Source of the DNA: a virus
Taxonomy: Duplodnaviria; Caudoviricetes
DNA: 64,000 bases
Strand: one strand, 5' to 3'
IMG/VR virus record: IMGVR_UViG_3300035522_000179
Coordinates: 64,001-128,000 of that record
Shown here in pieces: positions 2,152 to 61,238 of the stretch (position 1 is the first letter of the stretch; every line of letters starts with the position of its first letter). A model generated the notes under the pieces. It saw only the letters and a list, made by a program, of their open reading frames with translations, ran no database searches and had not been told where the DNA came from. The position numbers were made by a program, and so were the translations under genes.

Positions 2152-3168
2152 ATGAGCGTAATCACAATTAAGAAGGTTGACAAGAAGGTTGATTCATTCG
2201 GTAAGAAGGCTGGTATGAACTATTTCGAGAGAAAGAAGTTGGTGAAGACAGTTCATCGTTTTGGCTATGATACCGGTGTAAACGTTACATCTCAGCTGAT
2301 TGTTGACGGCATCGAGACAACAGTTTACCACACTGGCAAGCTTGCAATTTCCCTGGCTAAGACTGGTGGTAAGGGAATCAAGGCTGGAGCATCCAATGTG
2401 GCTAAGATCGCTGGAGAGACTACCGGAAAGATCAAGACCAAGATCAGTAAGAAGGAAGAGGTTGAAGAAGAGATTCCTGCAATCGTTGAAGTTGATCTTG
2501 AAGACCAGGTTGAATCTCAGGAATCCAGTGATGGATCTGACACTTCTGCAGAGAAGACTTCCAACAAGAAGACTCACGCGGAACTTGTTGCAGCATTAGG
2601 AATGTCCATCAGTCGGATGAGAATTATGACTGAATCATTTGCAAATGTTGTACTTGACATGCTTGGAATTGTTGATGAGGAGGCTTCCAAAATATACCAC
2701 GACGCTATGTTGGATGAGTTGGATGACACTATTCTGGAGGTGGCTGGAGTTGATGACTTTGCAAAAATCTTTGCTTTAACTGATGAGAAACTTGATGAAA
2801 TGAATGAAGAATTGAGATCCAGTACGGATGATGCAATAGATTCCATGATGGATTTACCCAATACCTCCAAGCGTGTTAAAAATGAACTGATGATGGAGAT
2901 GGCAGATATTTTAGCTAATCATGGAATCAACATCAACGACGTCATCACAAAGACTCCGGAAACCGAGCAGACAGCAGAGCAGGTTGATGAAGTTGTAGAG
3001 GAGAAGACGATCGAAGAGGAAGTTGGTCCGGAGCAGATTGTTTGTACTGCAAACAGCACTGAGGAGCTCAACGCAAAGGATCCGATCCTGAAGGAGACCA
3101 TGAGCAAGCCTCAGGCAGAAGCACCGAAGACTTCCAACAAGAAGGCTCAGACTTCTAAGAAGAAGTAA
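2152..3168 (+). CDS. Hypothetical acidic protein with an N-terminal domain paralogous to 1394-1723
   Basis: GGAGG RBS, 338 aa ORF, terminator follows. Confidence 0.85.
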   Translation: MSVITIKKVDKKVDSFGKKAGMNYFERKKLVKTVHRFGYDTGVNVTSQLIVDGIETTVYHTGKLAISLAKTGGKGIKAGASNVAKIAGETTGKIKTKISKKEEVEEEIPAIVEVDLEDQVESQESSDGSDTSAEKTSNKKTHAELVAALGMSISRMRIMTESFANVVLDMLGIVDEEASKIYHDAMLDELDDTILEVAGVDDFAKIFALTDEKLDEMNEELRSSTDDAIDSMMDLPNTSKRVKNELMMEMADILANHGININDVITKTPETEQTAEQVDEVVEEKTIEEEVGPEQIVCTANSTEELNAKDPILKETMSKPQAEAPKTSNKKAQTSKKK

Positions 3169-3191
3169 TTAGTTGCGTAATAGCAACAACG

Positions 3192-3228
3192 AGAAGCTGT
3201 GGGTTTTCCACCACAGCTTCTTTTTTTG
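3192..3228. terminator. Terminator between convergent genes
   Basis: agaagctgtgg...ccacagcttct stem with a T-run. Confidence 0.8.
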
Positions 3229-4455
3229 TTATCCTTCATATCCAGCAGGATAAATACTGGTAAATCCAAATTTGTTTTCATCGATCTTTTTATTCAGTGC
3301 AAGCATTTGAAGTCGATCCATTCTCTCTTTGTATGCTAACAGGTATTCCATAGAATGAGGAACTTCATATTTTTTTGCATATTTCGGATTGTTTAAAATA
3401 TCAATGTAATACTGAGCCGTATCCTGTTTGCTTCGAATATAAGATAAAATCAGAAGTTTATCATCATGACTCTTAATCTTATCAATCTCCACGGCGATAT
3501 AATCGATATCATAATTACTTAATTTCTTCAGTTTCTTTTTAGAAAAGAAAAATTCCGTGTAATAAGAATCAACAATATCATTTGCTCTTTCACAAGTAAT
3601 TTTCATTTGCATGGAATCAGTTGTAACAGAAGTATCATTACACCCTTCCGTGTAAATACTCCTTGCATTTCTAATCCATCCTCCAATGTAATCACTGGGT
3701 GCATTCATAAGTAGCTTATCAAAGATTCTCTGATTCAATCTTCCTTTGCGATATCTGAAGTTATTTACAATCTCTTCTGATAATTGTACACAGTTTTTCA
3801 TAGAGGTCTCTTTGTCACTGAACCGATCAATAAACTTATTTAACACGGAAGTTAATTCTGCATTGTACCCAAGTTGAGAAGCAAATTTATCAGCAGCGAT
3901 TTCTCTCTTGATATCCTTTGCAGAAAAGGTACAGGTATCCATAATCGGTAAAGAAAGGATTCCTTTAAACCGATCAGAATTTAAGATTTTCTTTACTCCC
4001 GTTTCCATCTGAGCATACTCGTATTTTAATACGTTCACAATTCGAGTAGGAACAGAATTATTGTCGATCACATGACCAATCTCATGAAGAAGCAAAGCGG
4101 TCAGTTCTCTTGGAGAAATCGTAACGATGGAATCATCCAAAATTCTTCGGTCAATTTCTATGTACCAAGAAGTATTTTTACTCCAGATCTCATGAATCAT
4201 ATTTACCGGTTCTTCTTTTACTATGGAGTTTACGATCTTATCCATGGTAGAAGTTTCCGGAAAGACACTCATTACAAAGCAAGGGTCTGATTTTTTCACA
4301 TTCGTCATGACTTTGATAGAGAATGTCTGATTAAAGATTTCTTTCAAATATCTTTCAATCTCTCTAAGTGGTACGGTATCATTTATATTCTTCTTTAAAG
4401 AAGAAAACGCCTCATCGATTTTCGCGAGACGGATTTTCTTAGCTTCTGCATTCAT
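3229..4455 (-). CDS. Zincin-like metalloprotease domain protein, probably virion-associated
   Basis: LLHEIGH (HEXXH) plus downstream EIAADKFA; late-type promoter upstream. Confidence 0.7.
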   Translation of the reverse strand: MNAEAKKIRLAKIDEAFSSLKKNINDTVPLREIERYLKEIFNQTFSIKVMTNVKKSDPCFVMSVFPETSTMDKIVNSIVKEEPVNMIHEIWSKNTSWYIEIDRRILDDSIVTISPRELTALLLHEIGHVIDNNSVPTRIVNVLKYEYAQMETGVKKILNSDRFKGILSLPIMDTCTFSAKDIKREIAADKFASQLGYNAELTSVLNKFIDRFSDKETSMKNCVQLSEEIVNNFRYRKGRLNQRIFDKLLMNAPSDYIGGWIRNARSIYTEGCNDTSVTTDSMQMKITCERANDIVDSYYTEFFFSKKKLKKLSNYDIDYIAVEIDKIKSHDDKLLILSYIRSKQDTAQYYIDILNNPKYAKKYEVPHSMEYLLAYKERMDRLQMLALNKKIDENKFGFTSIYPAGYEG

Positions 4456-4493: not shown

Positions 4494-4523
4494 TTTTCCA
4501 TTAGAATAAGGAAAATTTAAACA

Positions 4524-7212: not shown

Positions 7213-7225
7213 AACAATTTGTTAA
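7213..7225 (+). promoter_or_regulatory. Late-type promoter AACA-N6-TAA
   Basis: aaca atttgt taa before the tape measure gene. Confidence 0.7.
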
Positions 7226-7257
7226 TACTTCACAGAAGGGAAGTGAAAAGAAATATT

Positions 7258-10200
7258 ATGGCGGGTAATAAAAGAGAAATCAAACCCACTGATAGTTATC
7301 AAACTCGCTCTTTTAAGCTAAATGCGCAATGGCTTAAAAACGCGACAAAATCAATTGGATCAAACGCTGCAGAAGTTTTATCTGACGTTACTCCAAGTTT
7401 GTATAGTGCCGCTTCCACTTCAGCTGATATTGTACGCTCCATAAAAGGAAGTAGTGCAACATCAAAGAATGTAAAGAAACTGATCGATAATAATACCTAT
7501 GTGAAGAATGCCAGAAAAGCAATCTCAAATGCTTTTAAGGATTTATCCACAGGTAATTTTAACAACACGGATCGATTCGGTGATGTAGATGATGGAAAGT
7601 CACACACTTATATGTCTGACTTTGATGACGGTGCTGAGGGAGAAGGAAGTAATCAAACAGTTATTAATTTTAATCCCGAAGGATTAAATTCGATCAATAG
7701 TTCAATCAATAATCAAACGAAAGCACAGCTGCAAGCAGCAAAAGCAAATGCAGATATCGTAGTAGCAACATCGTCAGCAATGATGACGATGAATCAAAAG
7801 AATGCAGAAGCTACTCTGAATATGCTTTCGAATATCAACAATGGAATTCAGGCGTTAGTAAAATACAATAATGATACCATGACGAACTTTATCCAAAGTA
7901 GCATGGGATTTTACGACGCGATTGGGAAAGCATATACTTCGAATAAAAACGATAAGAAAAACGATGAAGATAAGAGACTTGGATTTAAAGACATCCTCGA
8001 TGCCAACGGAAATTTAAAAGGAAAAGACTTAGTAAAATTATTAGGTCAGAATACCAAAGATGCGTTTAATACATCTATGGTTGGTACTTTGAAAACCATG
8101 TTGGATACCGGAATGGATAATATCGTTTCCAATCCGTTGAATGTTATATCAACGGTTTTGATGAAGAAGATCCTTCCTGAAAAAATTGAGAAGTCCATGA
8201 AGAGTTTGGATAAAACATTCGCTTCATTCACAACGGAAATGCTTTTGAAAGCATCCGATTATTTTGATAATCTGGATGATGGACCATTAGCTCAGTTTGG
8301 AGGATTTCTTGGAAAATCATTAAATATTGGAACCGATCGAAAGAGTAAATTTAAAACCGGCGGAAAAGTAACAAAAGATGCTGCTGTTTTTGATGGAATT
8401 ACACAACACGCAATCACAACGGAAATCCCGAAGTATTTAAGAGAAAGCACATCGTATTTGAGGCAGTTGGTTGCGTTAAATGGTGGTGATCCAGATAAGG
8501 CTTTAAAGAACTCTGAAATTTTCAATCGTGAAACAGGTACTTTCGATAAGTATGGAGAGTACATGAAAGATATGATGGGTTCGATTAATGAATCGATTAT
8601 CAATACTTTCAACGATAGTGAACTTGGAAAGAATTTAACGAAAGTCTTAAACAGCAATGTCATCGGTAATAATGACAAAGAGTCTTTTCAGGAGTTGATC
8701 AATAAATTCTATCTTGCAATGGAAAAAGATGATAGAAAAGTACTTGATATCAACCGTGGAAAAGATATTTCAGATATCATTGATGGAATTGCTGGAAATA
8801 GTAAATTGAAGGATATTCTGGAGGAGTCCGTTTATTCTGCGATTGACTTAGGAGAAGGAAACCTTGGTGTGAACTCCATTCGTCATAAAGCAAGAAGTAG
8901 CCGTAATGACAGAATCGAGGAATTGGAAACCAATAATCTTTCGGATCTTTCTACCTTTGTAAAGAACGGTAATACCATTGACGATGCGATCGCTGCTGTC
9001 CTTTATGGTGATGATGGAAGAGCGACCCAAGCACAGAATGTCAATCCAAATTCTGTTATGGGTCATTTGAAATCTATCGAAGACTTACTTTACAGAGGTA
9101 TCAATGTAAAGGTAGTAAAAGACTTTGGAGATACAAATGGTATTTTTGATCTTTTTGGATCCAGAAGAAACAATTCGACTCAGACAACGGATTCTACCAC
9201 TCCGCAATCGAATGATTCTGATTCGAAACTGGATGAGAGTGCAATCAAAGATGTATTAGCTGCAGAGGAATCCAACGGAAGCAATGATGGGAATACTTCA
9301 AGATTTATACAAGACAATTCCAAACGATTAAAGAACATGATGCATTTCATGATCACTGGAAACACAGGTCTTGCTTATAAAGAAATGGGTGGTATGTTTG
9401 GAAGTACCATCTCAAATCTTGGATCGAAATTAAACAATTCTGTTTTGGAACCTCTAAAGAAGAAAATCTTTGGAGATAAAAAAGAGGACGAGAACGGTGA
9501 AAAAGAAGAGAGCATCTTTGAAGGAGTAAAACGGGTCTTCAATAATGTGAAGAAAGAAACCCATGATTTCATTTTCGGAAGCAAAGAAGAAGGAAATGAA
9601 AAAGAGGGTATCGTTCAAAAAGGTGCTTCTTTATTCAAAGAAGGATTTGAAGGTTGGAAACTTGCTATCTTTGGAAGTGATGATGAAGCACAGAAATTCA
9701 AAGAAAAAGCTCAGAAGACTTTAAAAGACCGTGCAAAGAGTACCGGAATGGGTGCAGTCGCTGGTGCAGGTCTTGGAGTCACCATGGGTGGTGTTCTTGG
9801 AAATCTTGTTGGTGGTCCTTTAGCTGGAGCAGTTCTTGGTGCTGCTACTGGATTTATCTCGAAGTCATCAAAATTTCAGGAGATCGTTTTCGGTAGGGAA
9901 TCTGATGGTCAAGGTGGATTCAAAGATGGCGAAGATGAAAATGCTGGAATTATAAATAAGAAAACAAGAGAGTTCTTTAAAAATAACAAAACCGATTTCA
10001 TCGGTGGTGGTGTAGTTGGTGCTGGTCTTGGTGCACTGACTGGTGGAGGACTTCTTGGTACTTTGGTCGGTGGTCCCGTAGCTGGTGCTTTGATGGGAAC
10101 GGCTGTCCAGATGGTAAGAAAATCGAGTGCCTTCCAGGATATGTGGCTTGGTAAGGAAGATGAAGAAGGTAAACGTTCCGGTGGTATGAAGGAACGCCTT

Positions 10201-13200
10201 ATGAAAGCTTTCGCTGGTTCTGACGCTGGTAAAGAGGCAAAGAGCTCTGCAAAACTTTTCGGAATGAGTGCTGTTGGATCTGGTGCTGGTATCCTTGCAA
10301 GTTTCTTCACACCTCTTGGACCGATTGGTGGTGCCGCATTGGGACTTGGTGCTTCCATGTTAGCACAAAAAGAAGGATTCCATAAATGGCTCTTCGGTGA
10401 TGAGGATAAGGAAAAAGGCGAGCCTGGTCTGTTAAAGAAGATGGGTAACATCATCGATACTCATGTTATCATGCCTTTAGCAGATACTGCAAAGGACTTC
10501 ATGGATAGCGCAAAAGATGCGATCATTGATAAGATCGTAGATCCTTTGGAAAATCTTTTGGGACCTCTTGCTGGACTTGCAGAAAGTATCCGAGATTCCG
10601 TAAGTGACTTCATGGAAGGAATTAAAGAGAGAGCGAAAAACTTATTTAAAACCATTACAGACAACGCAGTAGATGCTCTTAGTAATGTGACATCGAAAGT
10701 TATGGATTTCATGAAAGGAACAATTTTTGGTAAAATCGCTGGAAAGATTCTTGGAGCTCCTGGAGCTGCAATGAATGCAATCGGAAATAAGATACGAAAA
10801 GGTAACGAAAAGAGATCCTTAAAACGTGTCAAAGGAAAATGGAAAAATAGTAATGCTGGTAAAGAATTTTATGCTGACGTGGATTCTTCATGGGCAAACA
10901 TGTCTGATGAAGAGAAATCTCAGTATGATGATTATGATGATTACTTTAATTCTAGAGCAAAAACAAAATTCTATTATTCCGAAGACAGACGTGGTGAGCA
11001 GGCAAAGGATAGAAAATCTCGAAAAGAGACTCGTGAAGCAAGAAGACAAGAAAGAGCAGACATCACAAATCAAAAGAAGTTAATTGCAAGATTAACTGGT
11101 GGTGCTACGACGGATATCACAGACGAGACAAAACAAGCTGCTCTGAATAACTTCAAAGATTCCAAATACTACGTGAAAAATAAAAAGCTATTAGGAATGA
11201 GTAATGAAGAAGTTATGAGGCTTCTTTCTCCGAAGAAAGATGAAGACGCTGCTAAGACTCAAGAGGAAACGTTGAATAACGCTGAGGAGCAGTTGACTGC
11301 CGCAAAAGAATCTGCTACGAGCCTTAATTCAATTGATACCAAAGTTACTGAGGTCATATCCTATTTAAACCAACGTATTTTTGGTAAAGATGAAAATGAA
11401 CCAGAAAAGGAATATTCTAATCACGACCAAAAATTAATTGATCGAGCTGATAAGAGAAATGCTTCCGCGGAAGCAAATAAGAAATTCGAAGAAGGCTATA
11501 ACGCTGAAAAAGAAAAGAAAGATGCTGAGCGAGCACAGAACGCAATTGATCGGCAAAAAGCAGTTGAACATGGATTTATGTCGGAAGAAGAAGCTGCTGA
11601 GGAACAGGCGGCAGAGGATGAAGACGCAGCTAGAGAAAACCACCAGGGTTTTAAACTTGGGAAGTTTAGAAGAGCTGGGCTTTTTGTAAAATCTATCTTC
11701 AGTAGAAATAAATCTGTTCGAGACAGTGCTTCCGCTGTCCGTAATATGTTAAAAAGCGGAGATGCATCTGGATATGATTTAGAGAATGCTTACAATGCTT
11801 ATCGTGATACGAAAAAAGCTGTAAAGAAAGAAAAGAAAGATTCTAGATTTGCGAAAGCATTTCAAAGGAGAAATCTTGCAGAATCTGTAAAGAATTTTGT
11901 AAAAGCTGGTGGTCGTGCATTCGCTGAAGGCGGTGAAACAGAAGAACCTGGTGTTGTAGCCGTTGGTGAAGAAGGACCTGAACTTGTAAGAGTAAAGGGT
12001 AACGAAGAGATTATCCCGAACGATAAAGCAATCAAAGTTCAAGTGGTTGCAATTGACGATGATGTAACGAAAAAACTGAATGAAGAGAAAAAAGATAACG
12101 CAATCGTGGATGTGAATATCGTAGGTCAGAATGGTTTGCTTGCAACTTACGGTACGAAAGCAACACTGGATGAAAACACTGATAACAAAGCACAGATTGA
12201 AAAAGACTTATCAAAGAAAGATAGTTTGGTAAGTTACGATAACGTAAAAGCTGATAATGATGATGATAATGAAACCGAAGAAAAAGAAGAAAAACAGAGT
12301 TTCTTCTCAAAGATTTTAAGTTTGTTCGGAAGTAGTGGTGGATCTGGATTACTTGGAATTCTTGGTAAAGTTGCAGTTGCAGGTGCTGGAATTTATGCGT
12401 TCTTTAAAAGCGAAACATTGCAGAATATCCTAAAGAGTCTTCTTAGTCTTGGTGGAAAATTGTTAACAAGCCTCGGAACAACAATTGGTGATGTGGCGAC
12501 TGACACCGTTGAGAATGTCAAATGGACTTCTGAAAATAATGCTTATGAGAATGGTGCTGATTTCTCTACCAACCTCAGTAATCAAGCTCAGAGAGCAACA
12601 GCCCTTGCAAGTGGTGACATCGGAACAGCTCTCCTTGGAACCGATGGAGAAGCGGATGGAATTACTAGCGCTGGTCTTAAAGTCGGAAGGAACATCGTGC
12701 AAAAAGTAGCCACCGGTAATACCGGAATGGTTAGAGGAGCTGCATCTCAGGTTAAGTTGGCAAAGAATCTTATCAGTGGAAAAGGATTAGCTGAATCTGT
12801 TACCGATGCAGCTTCTGGTCTGAAAGGTATTTCTGGTGCAGTAGCAAATATGACCAAAAGCGCTGCGGAAGATGGTGCAAAATCTGTTGTCAAAGATGCA
12901 GCGAAAGAAGGTTCTGAAGGAATTTTAAAGAAAGTTCTCGAAAAGATCACGGAAGTTCTAAAAAGTATTGGTGAAACTATTGCTAATAAAGTAAAAGGAA
13001 AAGCCGCAGACATTATAAAACCAGCTCTAAAAGTAGTGGAAGAGGCTTTAGATAAAATCACCAAAGGATTATATGGAAAATTTAAGGATCTGATTGTGAA
13101 AGGTATTAATAAAATACGAAATCTCTTAACTGGAACAGCTGCTGTTGCATCTACTGGCGTTGGACTGATTGGAATTGTTGTACAGAAAGGTGCATTCGTT

Positions 13201-16200
13201 ACGTTAGGTGCACTGAATGCTTCTGGAAAAGCTGGAGCCGCTCATCTGTTTAAATGCCAGCAGGAAGATGTTGACTGGAAAATGAGATTGATCGCAGCAG
13301 CTTGGGGAGGATTCTCACAAACAACCCCAGGATCAATTATCGATATCGTAAATGAAATCTTTGCAGCGATTACAGGTGAGAACCTGATTTGTAGTTTGGC
13401 ATCTTCGTTGTATAAACAAATTTCAGACGATGACGATGACGCAAAACTGGAAGAATCTCAGGCAGCGTTAAAAGAAGATTATCAACAATATCAAGAGAAT
13501 GCATATCAAGAAAGTTATGCACAATATCTAGAAGACAATGGATTGGATGAATCCCAGTTATCTTATGAAGATTATAAGAATGGTGTTTCTTCTGGTGAAA
13601 TTGAAGCAGACATCATGGGATTCGACGAATATAACGATAAAACCAACCAGACTGTCGGTGCGAAACTAATGAATGGTGCTGTTAACGTCGCAAAGACCGT
13701 TGGTGGCGGAATTAAAAAAGTTGGTGGTGCTGTCGTTACTGGTGTGAAGACTGTTGGTAAAGGCGTTGTTAGTGGAGTAAAGGCAGTAGGTAAAGGAGCT
13801 GCTACGATTGCAAAGACCGTTGGTGGTGGAGTAAAAGCCGCTGCATCCTTTGTCGGAAAAGGAATTAAGTCTATCGGAAGTGGAATTGGTAATACAATGA
13901 GTTCTGCAAAAGAAGCATTAGTTGCTTTGAATACCGGTAGAAAAAAGATTGAAGAAGAATTTACCAATGAAGATGGTGATCTTTCTTCTTATATGAAGTT
14001 AGATGCAAATACGTTAAGTGAAGATCATCCGTTCTACGGACTTGTAAACACGATGCTTGGAATTACAAAGATCGTAACCATTCCGAAAATGGTTCTTACC
14101 GGAGTCTTGAAGAAGATCGGTAAATCTGTTGTTAGTAATGTGAAGACACTCATTGGTGGAGTCAAAACATTATTCTCCGCTGGAGTAGATAGCACTGTTA
14201 AGTTACAGCAAATTTCCAAAACCGGCGATCTTTCTGCATTACATGAGTTCGAACCAGAAATAGATGACGAATCTCCTATGGCTGGAGTCGTTCGTGGAAT
14301 TATCGGATTTGAAAAAATGCTTTACTATATTCCTACAGGTGTTAGTTTTGTAGGAAAGAAAATCAAAGACGGCGTTGTTTCAATGCTTGGTGGAGTAAAG
14401 AAAATCTTTTCAACCAATGTGAATAATGCCGCTGAGTTATCAAAAATTGCTGTGAAAGGCGATTTATCTGGATTGCATGAGTACGAGCCCAAGGTAGACG
14501 AAGACGTTCCTTTAGCTGGAATTGTAAAAGCTGTTTCTGGATTCCAGAAGATGTTGTTTTACATTCCTGCGGGAATTAGTTTCGTTGGACATAAGATTGC
14601 CGATGGGGTAGTATCCATTGTTAAAAACATAAAAACGGATTTCACGAATAATGTTAAAAACACTACCGAATTAACAAAAATGGCGGTGAAAGGTGATGTA
14701 TCTGGAATACATTCCTTTGAGCCGGAAGTCAATGAAGATAGTCCTCTTTCCGGAATTATGAGGGGTCTTAATAATGTGGATAAGATCTTCTTCTATATTC
14801 CTGCGGGAATTAGTTTCGTTGGACATAAGATTGCCGATGGAATCAAAGGAATCGTTGACGGTGTCAAGAAAGTGATGAAGACTGGAATTGATAACACATC
14901 TGAATTGATGAAGATATCAAGAACTGGTGATTTCTCTGCATTAGGTCAGTTTGAACCCAAGGTAGACGATGATGTTCCTTTAGCTGGTGTTGTTCGAGGA
15001 CTCGTTGGAATTCAGAAGATCTTCTATTATATTCCTACCGCATTTAGCTTTGTCGGAAAGAAGATTCATGCCGGAATTACAAGCATTGTCGATGGTGTCA
15101 AGAAAGTGATGAAGACCGGAATTGATAACACATCTGAATTGATGAAGATATCAAGAACTGGTGATTTCTCTGCATTAAGTGCTTTCGAACCTCAAGTAGA
15201 CGACGATGTTCCTTTGGCAGGTGTCGTTAAAGGACTTGTCGGAATTGAAAAGATGATTTACTACATTCCTACTGGACTTAGTTTCGTAGGAAAGAAGATT
15301 CATGATGGTATTTCTTCAATGATTGGTGGCATCAAGAAGATGATGTCTTCTAGTCTTGAAAACACATCTCAACTGAAAGAGATTTCCAAAACCGGTGATC
15401 TTAAAGCTCTTGGAAGTTTTGAACCGCAAGTAGATGACGATGTTCCTTTGGCAGGTGTCGTTAAAGGACTTGTCGGAATTGAAAAGATGATTTACTACAT
15501 TCCTGCGGGTATCAGCTTTGTAGGAAAGAAGGTTCATGATGGTATTACGTCGGCTGTAAATGGAATTAAGAAGATGATGTCTTCTAGTCTCGACAACATT
15601 TCACAATTGAAGGAAATCTCTAAAACTGGAGACCTTACTGCATTAGGTCAGTTTGAGCCTCAGGTGGATGACGATGTTCCTTTGGCAGGTGTCGTTAAAG
15701 GACTTGTCGGAATTGAAAAGATGATTTACTACATTCCTACTGGACTTAGTTTCGTAGGAAAGAAGATTCATGATGGTATTACGTCGGCTGTGAATGGTCT
15801 CAAAAAGATAATGACTACGAGTCTTGACAACACGACTCAGCTGAAAGAGATTTCCAAAACCGGTGATTTCTCTGCATTGAATAATTTCGAAGCAGATGTA
15901 GACGATGATGTTCCTTTAGCTGGTGCTGTTCGGGCAATGGTAGGAGTTGAGAAAATATTCTATTATATTCCTACGGCATTCCATTTTGTTGGAAATAAGG
16001 TATCTGATGCATTCCATAGTTTTGTAGATGGAATTCCCAAGATGTTTAAGACATTGAAAAACAGCATGGCAGATCTGAATGATATCGCAAAAGAAGGCGA
16101 CATGGAAGCCCTTGGAAAATACGAAATGGAAATTGATGAAGATACACCAATGTCTGGTTTGATTGGTGGTATTGGATCTATTGCGAAAATACTTTATTAC

Positions 16201-18792
16201 ATTCCTACAACGATTAGTTACGTTGCAAACAAGATAAAAGAGAAATTAGGATTTCTCGGAAATTCCTTGTTTAAGATCTTGAAAAAGGTTGCCATCGGTG
16301 ACAACGATGATCTCGATGACGACGAAGAAGATACCGAAAGCGGAAGTGGTGGTAAAGGTGGATATGGAGGAGTTCCTTTCTATTCCCAAAAAGACCCGAA
16401 ATGGAAAAATATGTCTTATGATAAAGGTGGTTCTGGAGATACCATGGGAACTGCTGGATGCGGTCCTACTGCATTCGCAATGGCAGCTTCTGGAGCTACT
16501 GGAGCAAACATAAATCCTGTACAATCCGCTGCGGTTATGAAAAAAGTAGGTGCTCGCGATGATACGGGTACGAACTGGAGTGGTATCGGTAAAGCAGCAA
16601 ATGCTTACGGTATCAGTTCGAGAATGTCTACATCTCCTTCTACTGGATTTGTAGATTCTGAAATTGCTTCTGGAAATCCTGTTATCTTATCAGGAAGATC
16701 CGGTGGTTATGGCGATACTCCTTATACCCCTCAAGGTCACTATGTAGTGGTAACTGGAAAAGATACAGAAGGAAATTATATTGTGAATGATCCTAATAAG
16801 AAATCGGGAGCTTCTAAATATAATAAGTCTGCAATCATGAAAGAAACCGGTGCGGCTTGGGGTATTGGTGGAAAAGGCAGATCTCTTCGTGGTGGTAGAG
16901 GATTTAGAGGACGTGGAGGTAGAGGTACGGAATCAACCGTTGGTAATGTATACCTGGATGATATGTACAGTGATACCGAGGACGAATCTTACGCTACTTA
17001 TACCGAAGGAAAGAAGAGAGCAACACATACGGCATGGATGAAGATTGTTAAGGCAGTAAAGAGAGCGATTGCAGCTCAATCTCCTGGATACAATCAAAGC
17101 AATTGGATTGATATTACTATTGCAAATAAAACGTTAAAGGTGAGAACAGACTGTTCCGGATTTGTTGGAGCATGTTTGAAATACTTTGGTGTTTTGGACG
17201 ATAACACAAATACAACTTCTTATATGTATGCTAACGCAAACAGTGGTGTTATCAAGAATACTGGATTCACTCCTTACGCTTGGTCAGGATGGGATTCATT
17301 AACAGAGGGTGATATCATTGGAAGAGATGGACATGTTGAAATATTTGCATACAATGAGAATGGTAAACACTATGTATACAACTGCGGAAGTAACGCTTCT
17401 GTAAATAATCCTTCTTCAACTCCAGCAGCATATTCCGCTTATACGACTTACTGGAGGCATATGGATGATCTTCCTGCAAATGCAATTAACACAAGTATGA
17501 TTGAATTGGATGATTCCAAAGCTGGTACAACAACCAGTGGAACGGTTGGAAGTGCTGTTGATTCTTCTGGAGATGCAACAACAGATTCTTCTTCCTCTTC
17601 ATCTAGTACAAGTGGTGGATTCCTGAGTAATATCACAACGTTCTTGTCTGAGTTAGGAACAAGAGCAATTAATGGAATTTCAACTGGAGAATGGAATACA
17701 GATTGGTCTGGTGTCTTTGATGGAAGTGATAGTTCGTCGAGTGATGATGCTACGACTTCAACGGACGACTCTTCTAGTACAGATTCAAGTACATCAGCGT
17801 CCTCTTATTCCAGTACTGCGGATCCTTCAATTGTAAATAATGATATAGCATTAAAAGGATGGAGATACTTTACAAATAATGGATATAGTAAAGCAGCAAC
17901 AGCAGCTATCTTAGGTAACCTTCAGCAGGAATCTAATATAGATCCTACTGCTATTCAAGGAAAGGGAAAAGGACCTGCAGCTGGTATTGCTCAATGGGAA
18001 GACTATAACACTAAAAGTGGAAGATGGTTGGACCTGAAAAACTATGCAGATTCAAAAAACAAAGATTGGACCGATGCTCAAACACAATTTGAGTTTATCG
18101 ATAAAGAGTTACAAGGAAGAACTAACAGGTTCGAAAATGATTATCCGTTTGATAAAAACGATCCATCTAAAGGTACCACACTAGGAAACGCTGGAGCAAC
18201 CACTACTACATTTGAAGATTGGAAAAAGTCAACAGACGTAGATATGGCAACGAGACAGTTTGAGGGTGCTTTCGAAGTAGCTGGAAAACCTATAATGGAA
18301 AATAGAATTAAGTATGCAAATGGATATTATAAAACCTATGGAAATGGACTGAGTAGTGGTAATATTTCTACTGTTGGTGTAGTTGGTCTGGATGATATGT
18401 ACAGTGCAACAGATGAAGAACTCAGTGCAGGAAAAGGTGGTAAAGGTGGATATGGAGGTTTCGGAGAAGCAATATCCGAAGAAAGCTCTATGTCTAGATC
18501 CGTAAACACACTTGCTAATTCTACGAGCTCTGACTTTAATAATACAAGTGATGTATTAAACAACAGTGATGTTGTGAAATACCTGTCACAGATCGTTACG
18601 ATACTTACGGAATCAAATGGTAAATTGGATGGACTGAAAGATATTAAAAATCTTTCTGGAACAACGAATGTTTACCAGTCCAATACCACAAATAATAACA
18701 ATTTAGAAAAGTCAACTGGAACTTCCAGTGCTTCAAAAACAGATGTATCTAAGAGGTTATTGCATCAGAAAATAGCCGCTGATGGTATCTAA
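7258..18792 (+). CDS. Tape-measure-like protein with C-terminal C39-like peptidase, NlpC/P60/CHAP-like and tail lysozyme domains
   Basis: ~3,840 aa, helical, with Gly-rich hydrophobic stretches; FAEGG...VGEEGPELV; YSQKD..GCGPT..GHYVV..NDP; DCSGFV..GHVEI; AAILGNLQQES..GIAQW. Confidence 0.85.
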   Translation: MAGNKREIKPTDSYQTRSFKLNAQWLKNATKSIGSNAAEVLSDVTPSLYSAASTSADIVRSIKGSSATSKNVKKLIDNNTYVKNARKAISNAFKDLSTGNFNNTDRFGDVDDGKSHTYMSDFDDGAEGEGSNQTVINFNPEGLNSINSSINNQTKAQLQAAKANADIVVATSSAMMTMNQKNAEATLNMLSNINNGIQALVKYNNDTMTNFIQSSMGFYDAIGKAYTSNKNDKKNDEDKRLGFKDILDANGNLKGKDLVKLLGQNTKDAFNTSMVGTLKTMLDTGMDNIVSNPLNVISTVLMKKILPEKIEKSMKSLDKTFASFTTEMLLKASDYFDNLDDGPLAQFGGFLGKSLNIGTDRKSKFKTGGKVTKDAAVFDGITQHAITTEIPKYLRESTSYLRQLVALNGGDPDKALKNSEIFNRETGTFDKYGEYMKDMMGSINESIINTFNDSELGKNLTKVLNSNVIGNNDKESFQELINKFYLAMEKDDRKVLDINRGKDISDIIDGIAGNSKLKDILEESVYSAIDLGEGNLGVNSIRHKARSSRNDRIEELETNNLSDLSTFVKNGNTIDDAIAAVLYGDDGRATQAQNVNPNSVMGHLKSIEDLLYRGINVKVVKDFGDTNGIFDLFGSRRNNSTQTTDSTTPQSNDSDSKLDESAIKDVLAAEESNGSNDGNTSRFIQDNSKRLKNMMHFMITGNTGLAYKEMGGMFGSTISNLGSKLNNSVLEPLKKKIFGDKKEDENGEKEESIFEGVKRVFNNVKKETHDFIFGSKEEGNEKEGIVQKGASLFKEGFEGWKLAIFGSDDEAQKFKEKAQKTLKDRAKSTGMGAVAGAGLGVTMGGVLGNLVGGPLAGAVLGAATGFISKSSKFQEIVFGRESDGQGGFKDGEDENAGIINKKTREFFKNNKTDFIGGGVVGAGLGALTGGGLLGTLVGGPVAGALMGTAVQMVRKSSAFQDMWLGKEDEEGKRSGGMKERLMKAFAGSDAGKEAKSSAKLFGMSAVGSGAGILASFFTPLGPIGGAALGLGASMLAQKEGFHKWLFGDEDKEKGEPGLLKKMGNIIDTHVIMPLADTAKDFMDSAKDAIIDKIVDPLENLLGPLAGLAESIRDSVSDFMEGIKERAKNLFKTITDNAVDALSNVTSKVMDFMKGTIFGKIAGKILGAPGAAMNAIGNKIRKGNEKRSLKRVKGKWKNSNAGKEFYADVDSSWANMSDEEKSQYDDYDDYFNSRAKTKFYYSEDRRGEQAKDRKSRKETREARRQERADITNQKKLIARLTGGATTDITDETKQAALNNFKDSKYYVKNKKLLGMSNEEVMRLLSPKKDEDAAKTQEETLNNAEEQLTAAKESATSLNSIDTKVTEVISYLNQRIFGKDENEPEKEYSNHDQKLIDRADKRNASAEANKKFEEGYNAEKEKKDAERAQNAIDRQKAVEHGFMSEEEAAEEQAAEDEDAARENHQGFKLGKFRRAGLFVKSIFSRNKSVRDSASAVRNMLKSGDASGYDLENAYNAYRDTKKAVKKEKKDSRFAKAFQRRNLAESVKNFVKAGGRAFAEGGETEEPGVVAVGEEGPELVRVKGNEEIIPNDKAIKVQVVAIDDDVTKKLNEEKKDNAIVDVNIVGQNGLLATYGTKATLDENTDNKAQIEKDLSKKDSLVSYDNVKADNDDDNETEEKEEKQSFFSKILSLFGSSGGSGLLGILGKVAVAGAGIYAFFKSETLQNILKSLLSLGGKLLTSLGTTIGDVATDTVENVKWTSENNAYENGADFSTNLSNQAQRATALASGDIGTALLGTDGEADGITSAGLKVGRNIVQKVATGNTGMVRGAASQVKLAKNLISGKGLAESVTDAASGLKGISGAVANMTKSAAEDGAKSVVKDAAKEGSEGILKKVLEKITEVLKSIGETIANKVKGKAADIIKPALKVVEEALDKITKGLYGKFKDLIVKGINKIRNLLTGTAAVASTGVGLIGIVVQKGAFVTLGALNASGKAGAAHLFKCQQEDVDWKMRLIAAAWGGFSQTTPGSIIDIVNEIFAAITGENLICSLASSLYKQISDDDDDAKLEESQAALKEDYQQYQENAYQESYAQYLEDNGLDESQLSYEDYKNGVSSGEIEADIMGFDEYNDKTNQTVGAKLMNGAVNVAKTVGGGIKKVGGAVVTGVKTVGKGVVSGVKAVGKGAATIAKTVGGGVKAAASFVGKGIKSIGSGIGNTMSSAKEALVALNTGRKKIEEEFTNEDGDLSSYMKLDANTLSEDHPFYGLVNTMLGITKIVTIPKMVLTGVLKKIGKSVVSNVKTLIGGVKTLFSAGVDSTVKLQQISKTGDLSALHEFEPEIDDESPMAGVVRGIIGFEKMLYYIPTGVSFVGKKIKDGVVSMLGGVKKIFSTNVNNAAELSKIAVKGDLSGLHEYEPKVDEDVPLAGIVKAVSGFQKMLFYIPAGISFVGHKIADGVVSIVKNIKTDFTNNVKNTTELTKMAVKGDVSGIHSFEPEVNEDSPLSGIMRGLNNVDKIFFYIPAGISFVGHKIADGIKGIVDGVKKVMKTGIDNTSELMKISRTGDFSALGQFEPKVDDDVPLAGVVRGLVGIQKIFYYIPTAFSFVGKKIHAGITSIVDGVKKVMKTGIDNTSELMKISRTGDFSALSAFEPQVDDDVPLAGVVKGLVGIEKMIYYIPTGLSFVGKKIHDGISSMIGGIKKMMSSSLENTSQLKEISKTGDLKALGSFEPQVDDDVPLAGVVKGLVGIEKMIYYIPAGISFVGKKVHDGITSAVNGIKKMMSSSLDNISQLKEISKTGDLTALGQFEPQVDDDVPLAGVVKGLVGIEKMIYYIPTGLSFVGKKIHDGITSAVNGLKKIMTTSLDNTTQLKEISKTGDFSALNNFEADVDDDVPLAGAVRAMVGVEKIFYYIPTAFHFVGNKVSDAFHSFVDGIPKMFKTLKNSMADLNDIAKEGDMEALGKYEMEIDEDTPMSGLIGGIGSIAKILYYIPTTISYVANKIKEKLGFLGNSLFKILKKVAIGDNDDLDDDEEDTESGSGGKGGYGGVPFYSQKDPKWKNMSYDKGGSGDTMGTAGCGPTAFAMAASGATGANINPVQSAAVMKKVGARDDTGTNWSGIGKAANAYGISSRMSTSPSTGFVDSEIASGNPVILSGRSGGYGDTPYTPQGHYVVVTGKDTEGNYIVNDPNKKSGASKYNKSAIMKETGAAWGIGGKGRSLRGGRGFRGRGGRGTESTVGNVYLDDMYSDTEDESYATYTEGKKRATHTAWMKIVKAVKRAIAAQSPGYNQSNWIDITIANKTLKVRTDCSGFVGACLKYFGVLDDNTNTTSYMYANANSGVIKNTGFTPYAWSGWDSLTEGDIIGRDGHVEIFAYNENGKHYVYNCGSNASVNNPSSTPAAYSAYTTYWRHMDDLPANAINTSMIELDDSKAGTTTSGTVGSAVDSSGDATTDSSSSSSSTSGGFLSNITTFLSELGTRAINGISTGEWNTDWSGVFDGSDSSSSDDATTSTDDSSSTDSSTSASSYSSTADPSIVNNDIALKGWRYFTNNGYSKAATAAILGNLQQESNIDPTAIQGKGKGPAAGIAQWEDYNTKSGRWLDLKNYADSKNKDWTDAQTQFEFIDKELQGRTNRFENDYPFDKNDPSKGTTLGNAGATTTTFEDWKKSTDVDMATRQFEGAFEVAGKPIMENRIKYANGYYKTYGNGLSSGNISTVGVVGLDDMYSATDEELSAGKGGKGGYGGFGEAISEESSMSRSVNTLANSTSSDFNNTSDVLNNSDVVKYLSQIVTILTESNGKLDGLKDIKNLSGTTNVYQSNTTNNNNLEKSTGTSSASKTDVSKRLLHQKIAADGI
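13960..16250 (+). repeat. About 10 tandem 234-bp (78-aa) coding repeats
   Basis: gatgttcctt recurs at 15205, 15439, 15673 and 15907; YYIP-type motif occurs ten times. Confidence 0.9.
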
Positions 18793-59201: not shown

Positions 59202-59378
59202 TTACAGGGTACAGAAGTTATACAGATCAATCTTCTGTCCTTTGGTTACAGAAAAGTAATCATTTAACAAACCAGTATCTCTCGATGTAATCATATGCTT
59301 TACTGGATCATACTTACGAAACATCTTCTTTACTGATTCATCCATAATTCCGATGATGTTTAAAATATCTCCGTCAAA
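59202..59378 (-). CDS. RNA polymerase beta' N-terminal subunit, exon 2
   Basis: FDGDILNIIGIMDESVKKMFRKYDP...YNFCTL* completes the NADFDGD motif. Confidence 0.92.
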   Translation of the reverse strand, partial: FDGDILNIIGIMDESVKKMFRKYDPVKHMITSRDTGLLNDYFSVTKGQKIDLYNFCTL

Positions 59379-59808
59379 CACGAGATCCCATATTTTTCAA
59401 TATGGCGTGGACTATATCTTCATCCTTAATCTATGTACACATTAAGGAGTCACGCGCTCCCACTCTAGCCCGCAAACTAGAATGTACCCTACTCAGAATC
59501 TTGATATCTTAGATATGATATTTCAAAATTCTTTTCAATAGTCTCTACACTTTATTATCTGTATTGCTAGATAATCTTAGCACGGTATTATCTGCTATCC
59601 ATTTCTGGACCGTAGGTTTTCTTACGAAGCTTATTCGCTCATGGATACTATATATATATATATAAATATAGCAGCTTATAATTGTCATATAAGCAATCTT
59701 AGTTCACTTCTACCGTTAGCAAGCTATATTATAACTCACACCGCTTGTTAGGCGTTCACGTGAAGCTCTGTATAGTATTACTACTATACACCGACAATGA
59801 CTTAGCTC
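59379..59808 (-). ncRNA. Group I self-splicing intron (430 nt, no ORF, probably subgroup IA)
   Basis: 5' exon ends in U, paired in P1 (GCCGAU/GUCGGU); terminal G; R-like GUAGAGACUAU; S element AAGAUAUAGUCC; P9 with a GAAA loop. Confidence 0.93.
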
Positions 59809-61038
59809 ATCGGCATTTAACCCACTAAGGATCGAGAGTGGAACCATCAATGTCAGGCACCCTTTATCTGGTCTAATCGTTCTTATATCCATCAGAATTA
59901 TGGAATAATAATTCAAAGTGGGGTTTCTGTTAATCACAACCGAAGGATGCTCGATATTAATGATCATCAACATAATCTCATAGATTCGTTGATCAAAATC
60001 GTATCCTTGTTCCCAAATGGTATTGGCTGCGGCTAACGAGATTCCATACATCTTCATTAAGTAATAAATGATTTTAAACTTAAACATGACATAGAAACAA
60101 CTGTATCCAAGATCTATTTCGTTATCTTTTAAACTAGGATCTGGACAAATGACATTTCGGGAAGTGAAGTTTAAAGATCCTCCAATCAACTGGTCTCTGA
60201 TCAAACCGTCTTTGGAGTTGATCAAATTAAAATTAAATTCCCAAATGGCATTGACTCTTTGTTGGATTCTTCCTAAGATCACAGGAGTTTCAATGTCTTC
60301 CGAATCCCTCAAATTCCTAGCAAGGTTTGTGAGGGTATTAATATCTTTATCAATTCCCGTAAAGTAAAAATTCTCACTGGTTACGGATTGTTGACGAAGA
60401 AGCGTAGTATAAACGGGAGCGTATGATGTAAATACTTTCAAACGCTCTTTGGAAATCAAATCAAAGGTACTGGCTTTGTTGGGTTTCTTCTTTCGATAAA
60501 AGTCTAAGACTTCATCAAAACGAAACCGGAATGATTCTAAGCCAATGCCACAAAACGGTGACTTGGGATCAAATTCTTTCATTTCCTCCGTAGTTAAATC
60601 CACTCTTCTTCCGTCTCGGTCTACTTTCTTCTTCGTATAAATAATTTCTGGGAATTCGTCTTTCCCAATCGCTGCTTGTAAGATGCGATAATAATGGGGA
60701 GCAACGATCTTCTTATTCCCAAAGGGAATCCATCCAGTCATTTTTGGATTCACGTCCTTAAACTCTACCTTTTGACCACACTTCGGACAAATCTCATCCT
60801 TAAAGGCAACCCCTGTGAATGCGCCACAATCACAAGAATACCGTTCTGCAAATGCCTGTTCGTCTGAAAATGTGGTACCAAACCGTGGGGACTGTGGACC
60901 ATTCAACGCTTTCTTTCGGGTTTCATCAATATCCACTTCCGGTGGATCTGTAATGAAAAACCCTCGTCCTTCGGCTACATCGGTGAATGCACAAACATCG
61001 AAGTTGAGCCTATTTACTTCTACTCTTCGTTTTCCCAT
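59809..61038 (-). CDS. Phage multisubunit RNA polymerase beta' N-terminal subunit, exon 1 (410 aa; 468 aa spliced)
   Basis: CDCG...CPKCG Zn finger, GWI, KDGLIR, SRNVICPDP, INRNPTL, GLNAD. Confidence 0.92.
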
Positions 61039-61070
61039 TGTTTACTCCTTTCTTAGTGCATAACGAGAAA

Positions 61071-61078
61071 ATAATATA
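61071..61078 (-). promoter_or_regulatory. Early-type promoter core TATATTAT for the RNAP gene
   Basis: ataatata on plus, 33 nt upstream of the ATG. Confidence 0.65.
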
Positions 61079-61238
61079 TTAGTAAAACTGAATTTAGAAA
61101 AGAATTCACTATTTCTCGTTATGTAACACGTTTTTTAAAAAATGGTATTTCATCTGTTTCAAAAACACTGACAAAAAAAAACAAATTAATAAATGATTTC
61201 AATAACCGAAAATTAAGAAAGATAAGAGGGTAAAAGAA

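Follow-up and report, generated by a model that had tools for sequence, protein, structure and literature searches.

What separates the two halves of a catalytic motif in this phage RNA polymerase gene, and does the interruption serve any purpose of the phage? The window, by which we mean the whole stretch of 64,000 nucleotides analysed, comprises bases 64001-128000 of a 249,613-bp IMG/VR virus record that is rated complete, and has a G+C content of 36%. It includes a single ORF of 3857 aa at positions 7219-18792 (plus strand). The interrupted gene lies on the opposite strand, and its features are collected in Table 1; in protein and RNA motifs at insertion sites, a slash marks the point of insertion.

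Exon structure

The original prediction, which was made from the letters of the DNA, started from a 440-aa ORF (59716..61038, minus strand). Its translation runs up to ...PLSILSGLNAD and then continues into 30 unrelated residues. The downstream exon that had been proposed is indeed there: FDGDILNII begins at 59378, 430 nt past exon 1, and this frame runs to 59202. When 59809 is joined to 59378, the reading frame is kept, NADFDGD is restored and a protein of 468 aa results. At the predicted spliced junction the RNA would read GCCGAU/UUUGAC, and the peptide spanning it would contain ...GLNADFDGDILN...

A protein database search with the 440-aa ORF as the query returned 215 homologues. Many of them are 466-471 aa long, carry NADFDGD and end in ...LNDYF.VTK.QKIDLY.FCTL, exactly as exon 2 does. 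The segment of the intron-less homologue P0003 (469 aa) that matches exon 2, residues 412-469, is identical to it at 49 of 58 positions (84%, E 2e-33) and begins directly after the NAD of P0003. A set of 80 related IMG/VR loci was compared; its three nearest members (L004-L006, 79% identity) are colinear with residues 1-468 and have no insert, and the same precise, in-frame absence of the intron across the junction is found in many other orthologous genes. The comparison with intron-less homologues thus sides with the proposed join.

Dozens of other homologues stop after NAD, and their read-through tails have ..CERLTSGV.. in common; evidently, gene-calling programs have here translated conserved RNA of the intron. 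The 30-residue tail of the 440-aa ORF is unrelated to any homologue. At the present locus, gene callers give a truncated, catalytically dead beta' fragment of 440 aa and miss exon 2, and, as dozens of similarly truncated homologues are in the database, this points to a systematic error in the annotation of metagenomic jumbo phages.

On these comparisons, the insert is confirmed as a group I intron inside the codons of the catalytic Mg2+-binding motif (NAD/FDGD), and the sequence evidence for the exon-intron structure is far beyond chance. To encode the catalytic aspartate triad, the primary transcript would have to be spliced.

Table 1. Features of the interrupted gene and its intron. Positions refer to the window; RNA strands are written 5' to 3' on the minus strand.
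Feature	Position	Strand	Details and evidence
Early (virion-RNAP) promoter-like motif of AR9 type, TAATATATTAT-TTTCTC-G	61064..61081	(-)	41 nt upstream of ATG
Exon 1, nvRNAP beta'-N gene	59809..61038	(-)	410 codons, ends ...GLNAD, last base is the U of GAU; phrog_2987, E 4e-44; PDB 7s01_d/7s00_d (AR9 nvRNAP beta'), E about 1e-24
Group I intron, 430 nt, without ORF	59379..59808	(-)	RF00028 match, family profile, MFE z-score, RNAalifold
P1	59791..59813	(-)	exon CCGAU (59813-59809) with guide GUCGG (59795-59791); U.G at splice site
P2 hairpin, GUAA loop	59769..59790	(-)	compensatory changes in 7/8 pairs
P3, 5' strand UCACGUG	59757..59763	(-)	partner 59456-59450; covariation, RNAalifold
Two extra P3-P4 hairpins (P3.1/P3.2-like)	59719..59754	(-)	covariation; invariant loop YUAACAA in the first
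P4 (ACGGU/ACCGU), P5 (GAAGU/GCUUC) and P5 extensions	59582..59716	(-)	P4 invariant; P5 canonical in 14/15, 3-5 pair types
P6/P6a	59549..59581	(-)	P6 canonical in 15/15 with covariation; GIY-YIG ORF of relatives occupies the P6 loop
P7, 5' strand GACUAU (R element)	59538..59543	(-)	pairs with AUAGUC 59415-59410 (S element GAAGAUAUAGUCC)
P7.1 (59531-59496) and P7.2 (59482-59463)	59463..59531	(-)	between P7 and P3; P7.2 canonical in 13-15/15, many pair types
P3, 3' strand CGCGUGA	59450..59456	(-)	covariation
P8 hairpin	59423..59448	(-)	covariation, RNAalifold
P9 and terminal G	59379..59405	(-)	P9 59405-59388, CCAUAUU-GAAA-AAUAUGG; G at 59379
P10 partner UGAC in exon 2	59373..59376	(-)	pairs with GUCA 59800-59797 in the P1 loop; read from sequence
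Exon 2, 58 codons and stop	59202..59378	(-)	FDGDILNII...LYNFCTL; 84% identity to P0003 residues 412-469

Structure and conservation of the intron RNA

Every RNA element that had been named beforehand could be located in the insert, namely P1, P7, the extra stems between P7 and P3, P8, a GAAA-capped P9 and the terminal G. The group I core, made up of the P3-P8 and P4-P6 domains with the P3/P7 pseudoknot and a P7 formed by the R and S elements, is conserved or covarying, and the folds agree. The P10 helix is short and is therefore weaker evidence; in relatives with GAU in exon 2, the P1 loop reads AUCA(A) instead. The P5 extensions include a (UA)n-rich hairpin and a GAAA-capped helix. The (UA)n-rich run (59641-59672, minus strand; CUAUAUUUAUAUAUAUAUAUAUAG) forms an extra hairpin of the P5 extension that is absent from the same-site introns of L007, L009, L014 and L015.

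The location of P7.1 and P7.2 between P7 and the 3' strand of P3, the criterion for subgroup IA (PMC3984707), argues for a placement in this subgroup, and we describe the predicted architecture as IA-like. Between P3 and P4 lie two hairpins that covary; they are peripheral additions outside the canonical core, relatable only to P3.1, an optional pairing of group I introns (PMC3873408). Two other pairings were considered and rejected: an alternative P4 (GCGGU/ACCGU), in which the variable base covaries with a local hairpin and not with P4', and a pairing of the P3.2 hairpin with the P7.2 loop, which shows no covariation.

The expectation that the Rfam group I model would recognize the insert came true in part. 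RF00028 does match 59388-59536 with an E-value of 1e-6, but the score of 34 bits falls below the gathering threshold of 50, which is a curation threshold and not a biological feature, and the alignment is sensible in the J8/7-P7-P9 part, the 3' half, only. At gathering thresholds Rfam gives no match in the whole window, and the locus likewise had no blastn match among the phages of GenBank. A third sub-threshold RF00028 match in the genome (C1:205799-206039) lies within an uninterrupted ORF of 312 aa and was therefore dismissed as chance.

The comparative evidence comes from introns at the same site in related phages. Those of L007, L009, L014/L025 and L015 (44-61% protein identity) can be aligned with the window copy over the whole length. 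For five same-site introns, RNAalifold predicts 71 pairs, of which 33 show compensatory double changes, and recovers P1, P2, P3, the two hairpins after P3, P4, P5, the GAAA-capped side helix, P7.2 and P8. A pattern search for the conserved core retrieved 35 viral loci, and pairs were counted on a set of 15 sequences. In this set, P3 is canonical at all seven pairs in 15/15, with three to four pair types at four positions, and P5, P6, P7.2 and P8 covary; P4 is invariant throughout and P7 (GACUA/UAGUC) almost so. The guide tracks the wobble base of the Ala codon, with GCC-GAU facing GUCGG in the window copy and four others, GCG-GAU facing GUCCG and GCA-GAU facing GUCUG.

The same helices are obtained from an unconstrained MFE fold of the window copy (z = -3.8 against shuffles), and an nhmmer family profile built without this copy has the window locus as its sole match in the genome (E 1e-58). 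The terminal G is present in eight of nine same-site relatives with boundaries set by protein alignment; L014, together with its near-identical copy L025, apparently has an A. By the same alignment, the L014 intron (L014:4710-5079) ends in ...GCACA/UUUGAU, perhaps because its splice site has shifted or because the copy is defective.

Could the locus do without splicing altogether, either by producing two polypeptides, one of 440 aa and one of 59 aa from a GTG at 59381, or as a pseudogene? A GTG with a weak GGGA upstream does precede FDGD. However, the RNA of the insert resembles a ribozyme, is conserved and covaries, its guide pairs with both exon ends, the read-through tail has no counterpart in any homologue, and both exons are intact and conserved in a genome that is rated complete. 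Moreover, AR9 gp270, whose gene contains an intron, was obtained as a single polypeptide in the purified non-virion RNA polymerase (nvRNAP; PMC5449584). Two polypeptides or a pseudogene thus appear extremely improbable.

Host gene and promoter

By homology, the host gene is that of the N-terminal beta' subunit of a non-virion multisubunit RNA polymerase, orthologous to AR9 gp270 and phiKZ gp55. Among solved structures, the best matches are the beta' chain of AR9 nvRNAP (7s01_d/7s00_d) and phiKZ gp55 (7ogp_A). AR9 g270, which carries the annotation 'non-virion RNAP subunit, beta' N-terminus', is among the best phage matches. The protein is nearer to nvRNAP than to vRNAP beta' homologues, and its C-terminus follows shortly after the DPBB with DxDGD. 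The other beta' paralogue, of phrog_2986 type, is encoded by a separate gene of the same genome (G000:C1:22250-23623), which is an uninterrupted ORF of 934 aa.

Upstream of the host gene lies the promoter-like motif listed in Table 1, which has four matches in the window against 0.66 expected. The genome as a whole has 31 ATATATTAT-N6-R sites, nearly all of them 30-90 nt upstream of correctly oriented ORFs; those in the window are at 4523, 30729, 38694(-), 38728, 58605(-) and 61079(-), and 25 more occur genome-wide. The consensus of the AR9 early promoter, which is used by the vRNAP, is AAATATATATTAT-N6-G (PMC5312081), and the motif of the present genome is nearly identical to it. Given this agreement, the step from an early-type promoter to a non-virion enzyme, taken in the original prediction, holds by analogy. 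The ATATATTAT-N6-R sites would also permit an early-gene map of the phage.

Distribution of the intron family

The intron had been described as lacking an ORF, and so it does: its open frames do not exceed 56 codons (the longest being 52-56), overlie the conserved RNA core and have no protein match. A tblastn search with the GIY-YIG proteins of relatives gave no match in the intron or in the whole genome, and hence no endonuclease remnant. Such proteins are encoded by the longer same-site introns of L036, L041, L058 and L069 (1071-1296 nt), after P4', in the P6 loop. Other family members interrupt distant phrog_2987 genes (...LLAAD/) or the phrog_2986 paralogue (...GMGAD/, ...GLGGD/), and in every such member the insertion site is the aspartate before FDGD (xAD/FDGD). 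By this kinship, the window intron is one copy of a mobile family that targets xAD/FDGD in both beta' paralogues. In L108, L110, L113 and L114, some 800 nt separate the S/P9 region from the FDGD exon that follows it; the DNA in between resembles coding sequence of the opposite strand and may be an antisense ORF in a 3' extension of the intron.

The host gene has 69 near-complete orthologues in the comparison; 43 are uninterrupted, 14 have one interruption, 11 have two and one has three, and the sites cluster near residues 290-298, 375 and 403-413. In L008, L034, L035, L039-L042, L058, L066, L075, L076 and L078, interruptions are seen near residues 278-298 (GGSLN...), 375 (NRNPTL/) and 403-413, with up to three in one gene (L041). 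Three loci, L012, L017 and L026, use the site NADFDG/D instead. This patchy distribution, the intron-less state of the nearest relatives and the endonucleases of sister copies fit a selfish homing element aimed at an invariant site that cannot be deleted, a pattern that has been described in reviews (PMC12908238; PMC3984707). As a multi-site intron hotspot, the beta'-N gene would offer a natural system in which to study intron homing and interference between phages at the active site of a polymerase.

Introns are also found elsewhere in this genome, outside the window. One of about 448 nt, likewise without an ORF (L123:2360-2807, minus strand; G000:C1 about 154.86-155.31 kb), interrupts the homologue of AR9 g105, the beta-N gene of the nvRNAP, between ...LLTCGNSD and PGTSGILSPF... 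It has a P1 (CUGAU/GUCAG) with a U.G pair, an R/S-like P7 (GAUUA/UAAUC, within GAUGAAGAUAUAAUC) and a terminal G, and no Rfam match at E<=1. A group I intron with an HNH ORF (L124 about 2390-3430, plus strand; G000:C1 about 51.39-52.43 kb) matches RF00028 with 28.5 bits, has the S element AAGAUAUAGUC and holds an ORF for a 202-aa HNH_3 endonuclease between exon frames of 252 and 303 aa; for its host gene, no match was obtained in PHROG or PDB, nor by tblastn against phages.

Physiological role of the intron

What can be said about the role of the intron in the phage? Our best explanation, which we hold with a probability of about 0.88, is that the nvRNAP beta'-N gene is interrupted by an ORF-less, IA-like intron of a mobile family, most likely a neutral passenger. 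The early transcript would fold into the ribozyme, guanosine would attack after the U of GAU in P1, and the exons would be ligated at the terminal G under the guidance of P10, by which the Mg2+-binding triad would be restored; this self-splicing we infer from the intron family, for which the mechanism is the standard one. As to its evolutionary history, we infer that the window copy lost its endonuclease or never had one, and that it persists most likely as a neutral passenger: imprecise deletion of the intron would destroy an essential active site, and the presence of the intron would remove the target of the endonuclease.

The original prediction went further, in that splicing was thought to gate the activity of the polymerase and to time late transcription. 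Its premise, that an unspliced message leads to a product without FDGD and thus to a dead subunit, is true by sequence, but trivially so; as any intron in an essential gene gives the same result, this is not special to the present one. For splicing efficiency to be a selected control that delays or conditions the assembly of active nvRNAP, there is the early-type promoter in front of an nvRNAP subunit gene, the second ORF-less intron that this genome has in its nvRNAP beta-N gene and the uninterrupted state of the other beta' paralogue. In addition, phage group I introns are reported to splice in a condition-dependent manner (Sandegren and Sjoberg 2007, cited in PMC10914365). However, one would expect a dedicated regulator to be conserved together with the gene in which it resides, and this intron is not: the nearest relatives lack it, most orthologues (43/69) are uninterrupted, and the remainder vary in the site and number of their interruptions. 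Such patchiness argues against a gate on late transcription, as do the homing endonucleases in the introns of relatives and the occurrence of the same intron family in the other beta' paralogue of other phages. A sensor or riboswitch element was looked for in the insert and the window, and none was found. The proposed timing function is thus unsupported; a selected timer would fit the data less well than a selfish homing element, and we consider it very unlikely.

A role that would be compatible with the neutral passenger is protection. An occupied homing site would shield the essential gene from the GIY-YIG enzymes of co-infecting relatives, so that the intron would be retained for the immunity it confers. 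GIY-YIG introns at exactly this site do circulate in related phages, and gp210 of PhiPA3, the endonuclease of an intron in an RNA polymerase gene, cuts the intron-less allele and cripples co-infecting phiKZ (PMC11620839). By this analogy, a protective or competitive role is conceivable. However, the present genome has no cognate endonuclease, and many intron-less alleles persist in the clade, for which reason protection seems to us possible but not probable. A broader proposal takes in both subunits: the nvRNAP would need at least two independent splicing events, one at the Mg2+-binding motif of beta'-N and one in beta-N, with a third intron in a further gene and the other beta' paralogue intact. 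The occupancy of these sites would have been selected as immunity or as a weapon when co-infecting jumbo phages interfere with one another by endonucleases, or else for a splicing-dependent delay of the switch from early to late transcription. This we regard as rather unlikely, and the neutral passenger remains our preferred reading.

Comparison with known systems

The closest known counterpart is AR9 g270. It is the orthologue of the host gene, its intron lies inside the catalytic DxDGD, an early promoter is found upstream, and its product is needed for the late-gene polymerase. It is annotated as a joined CDS. In contrast to the present intron, which has no ORF, that of g270 holds the HNH endonuclease g271; its splice site (...GDYDG/D, with a P1 of GACGGU/GCCGUC) lies 9 nt downstream of the present one, and it has no sequence similarity to the present family. 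The AR9-type insertion site is also the one used by the IMG/VR relatives L012, L017 and L026. Thus, the intron and the exon model appear genuine, and this is well supported by the sequence comparisons; AR9 g270 is a direct precedent, and the locus by itself would reveal no new mechanism.

The phage introns of subgroup IA, such as those of T4 td, nrdB and nrdD, of the SPO1 DNA polymerase gene and of Twort, have P7.1 and P7.2 between P7 and P3 in common with the present family, as well as an endonuclease ORF in the P6 loop, here in the relatives, and a location at a conserved site of an essential enzyme. We also take the P4/P6 sequence of the present intron (..UAACGG.., AAUACCGUGCUAA) to be td-like. 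The present family differs in that P3 and P4 are separated by two additional hairpins, both covarying, in the branched extension of P5 and in a sub-gathering Rfam score.

A precedent for a group I intron as a gene-control device is the c-di-GMP-dependent allosteric intron of Clostridioides difficile (PMC3984707). There, the intron is joined to the aptamer of a riboswitch, whereas no such element was found in the present one.

[quoted passage not shown] 2024, PMC11620839). It differs in that the phage is a chimallivirus, that the interrupted gene encodes the beta subunit of the virion polymerase and that the endonuclease is an HNH nicking enzyme, whereas the present intron resides in the non-virion beta' gene and has no ORF. 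The precedents of AR9 and PhiPA3 are thus extended by a GIY-YIG-associated intron family that recurs, in many uncultivated jumbo phages and in either beta' paralogue, at the DNA for xADFDGD, a universal motif.
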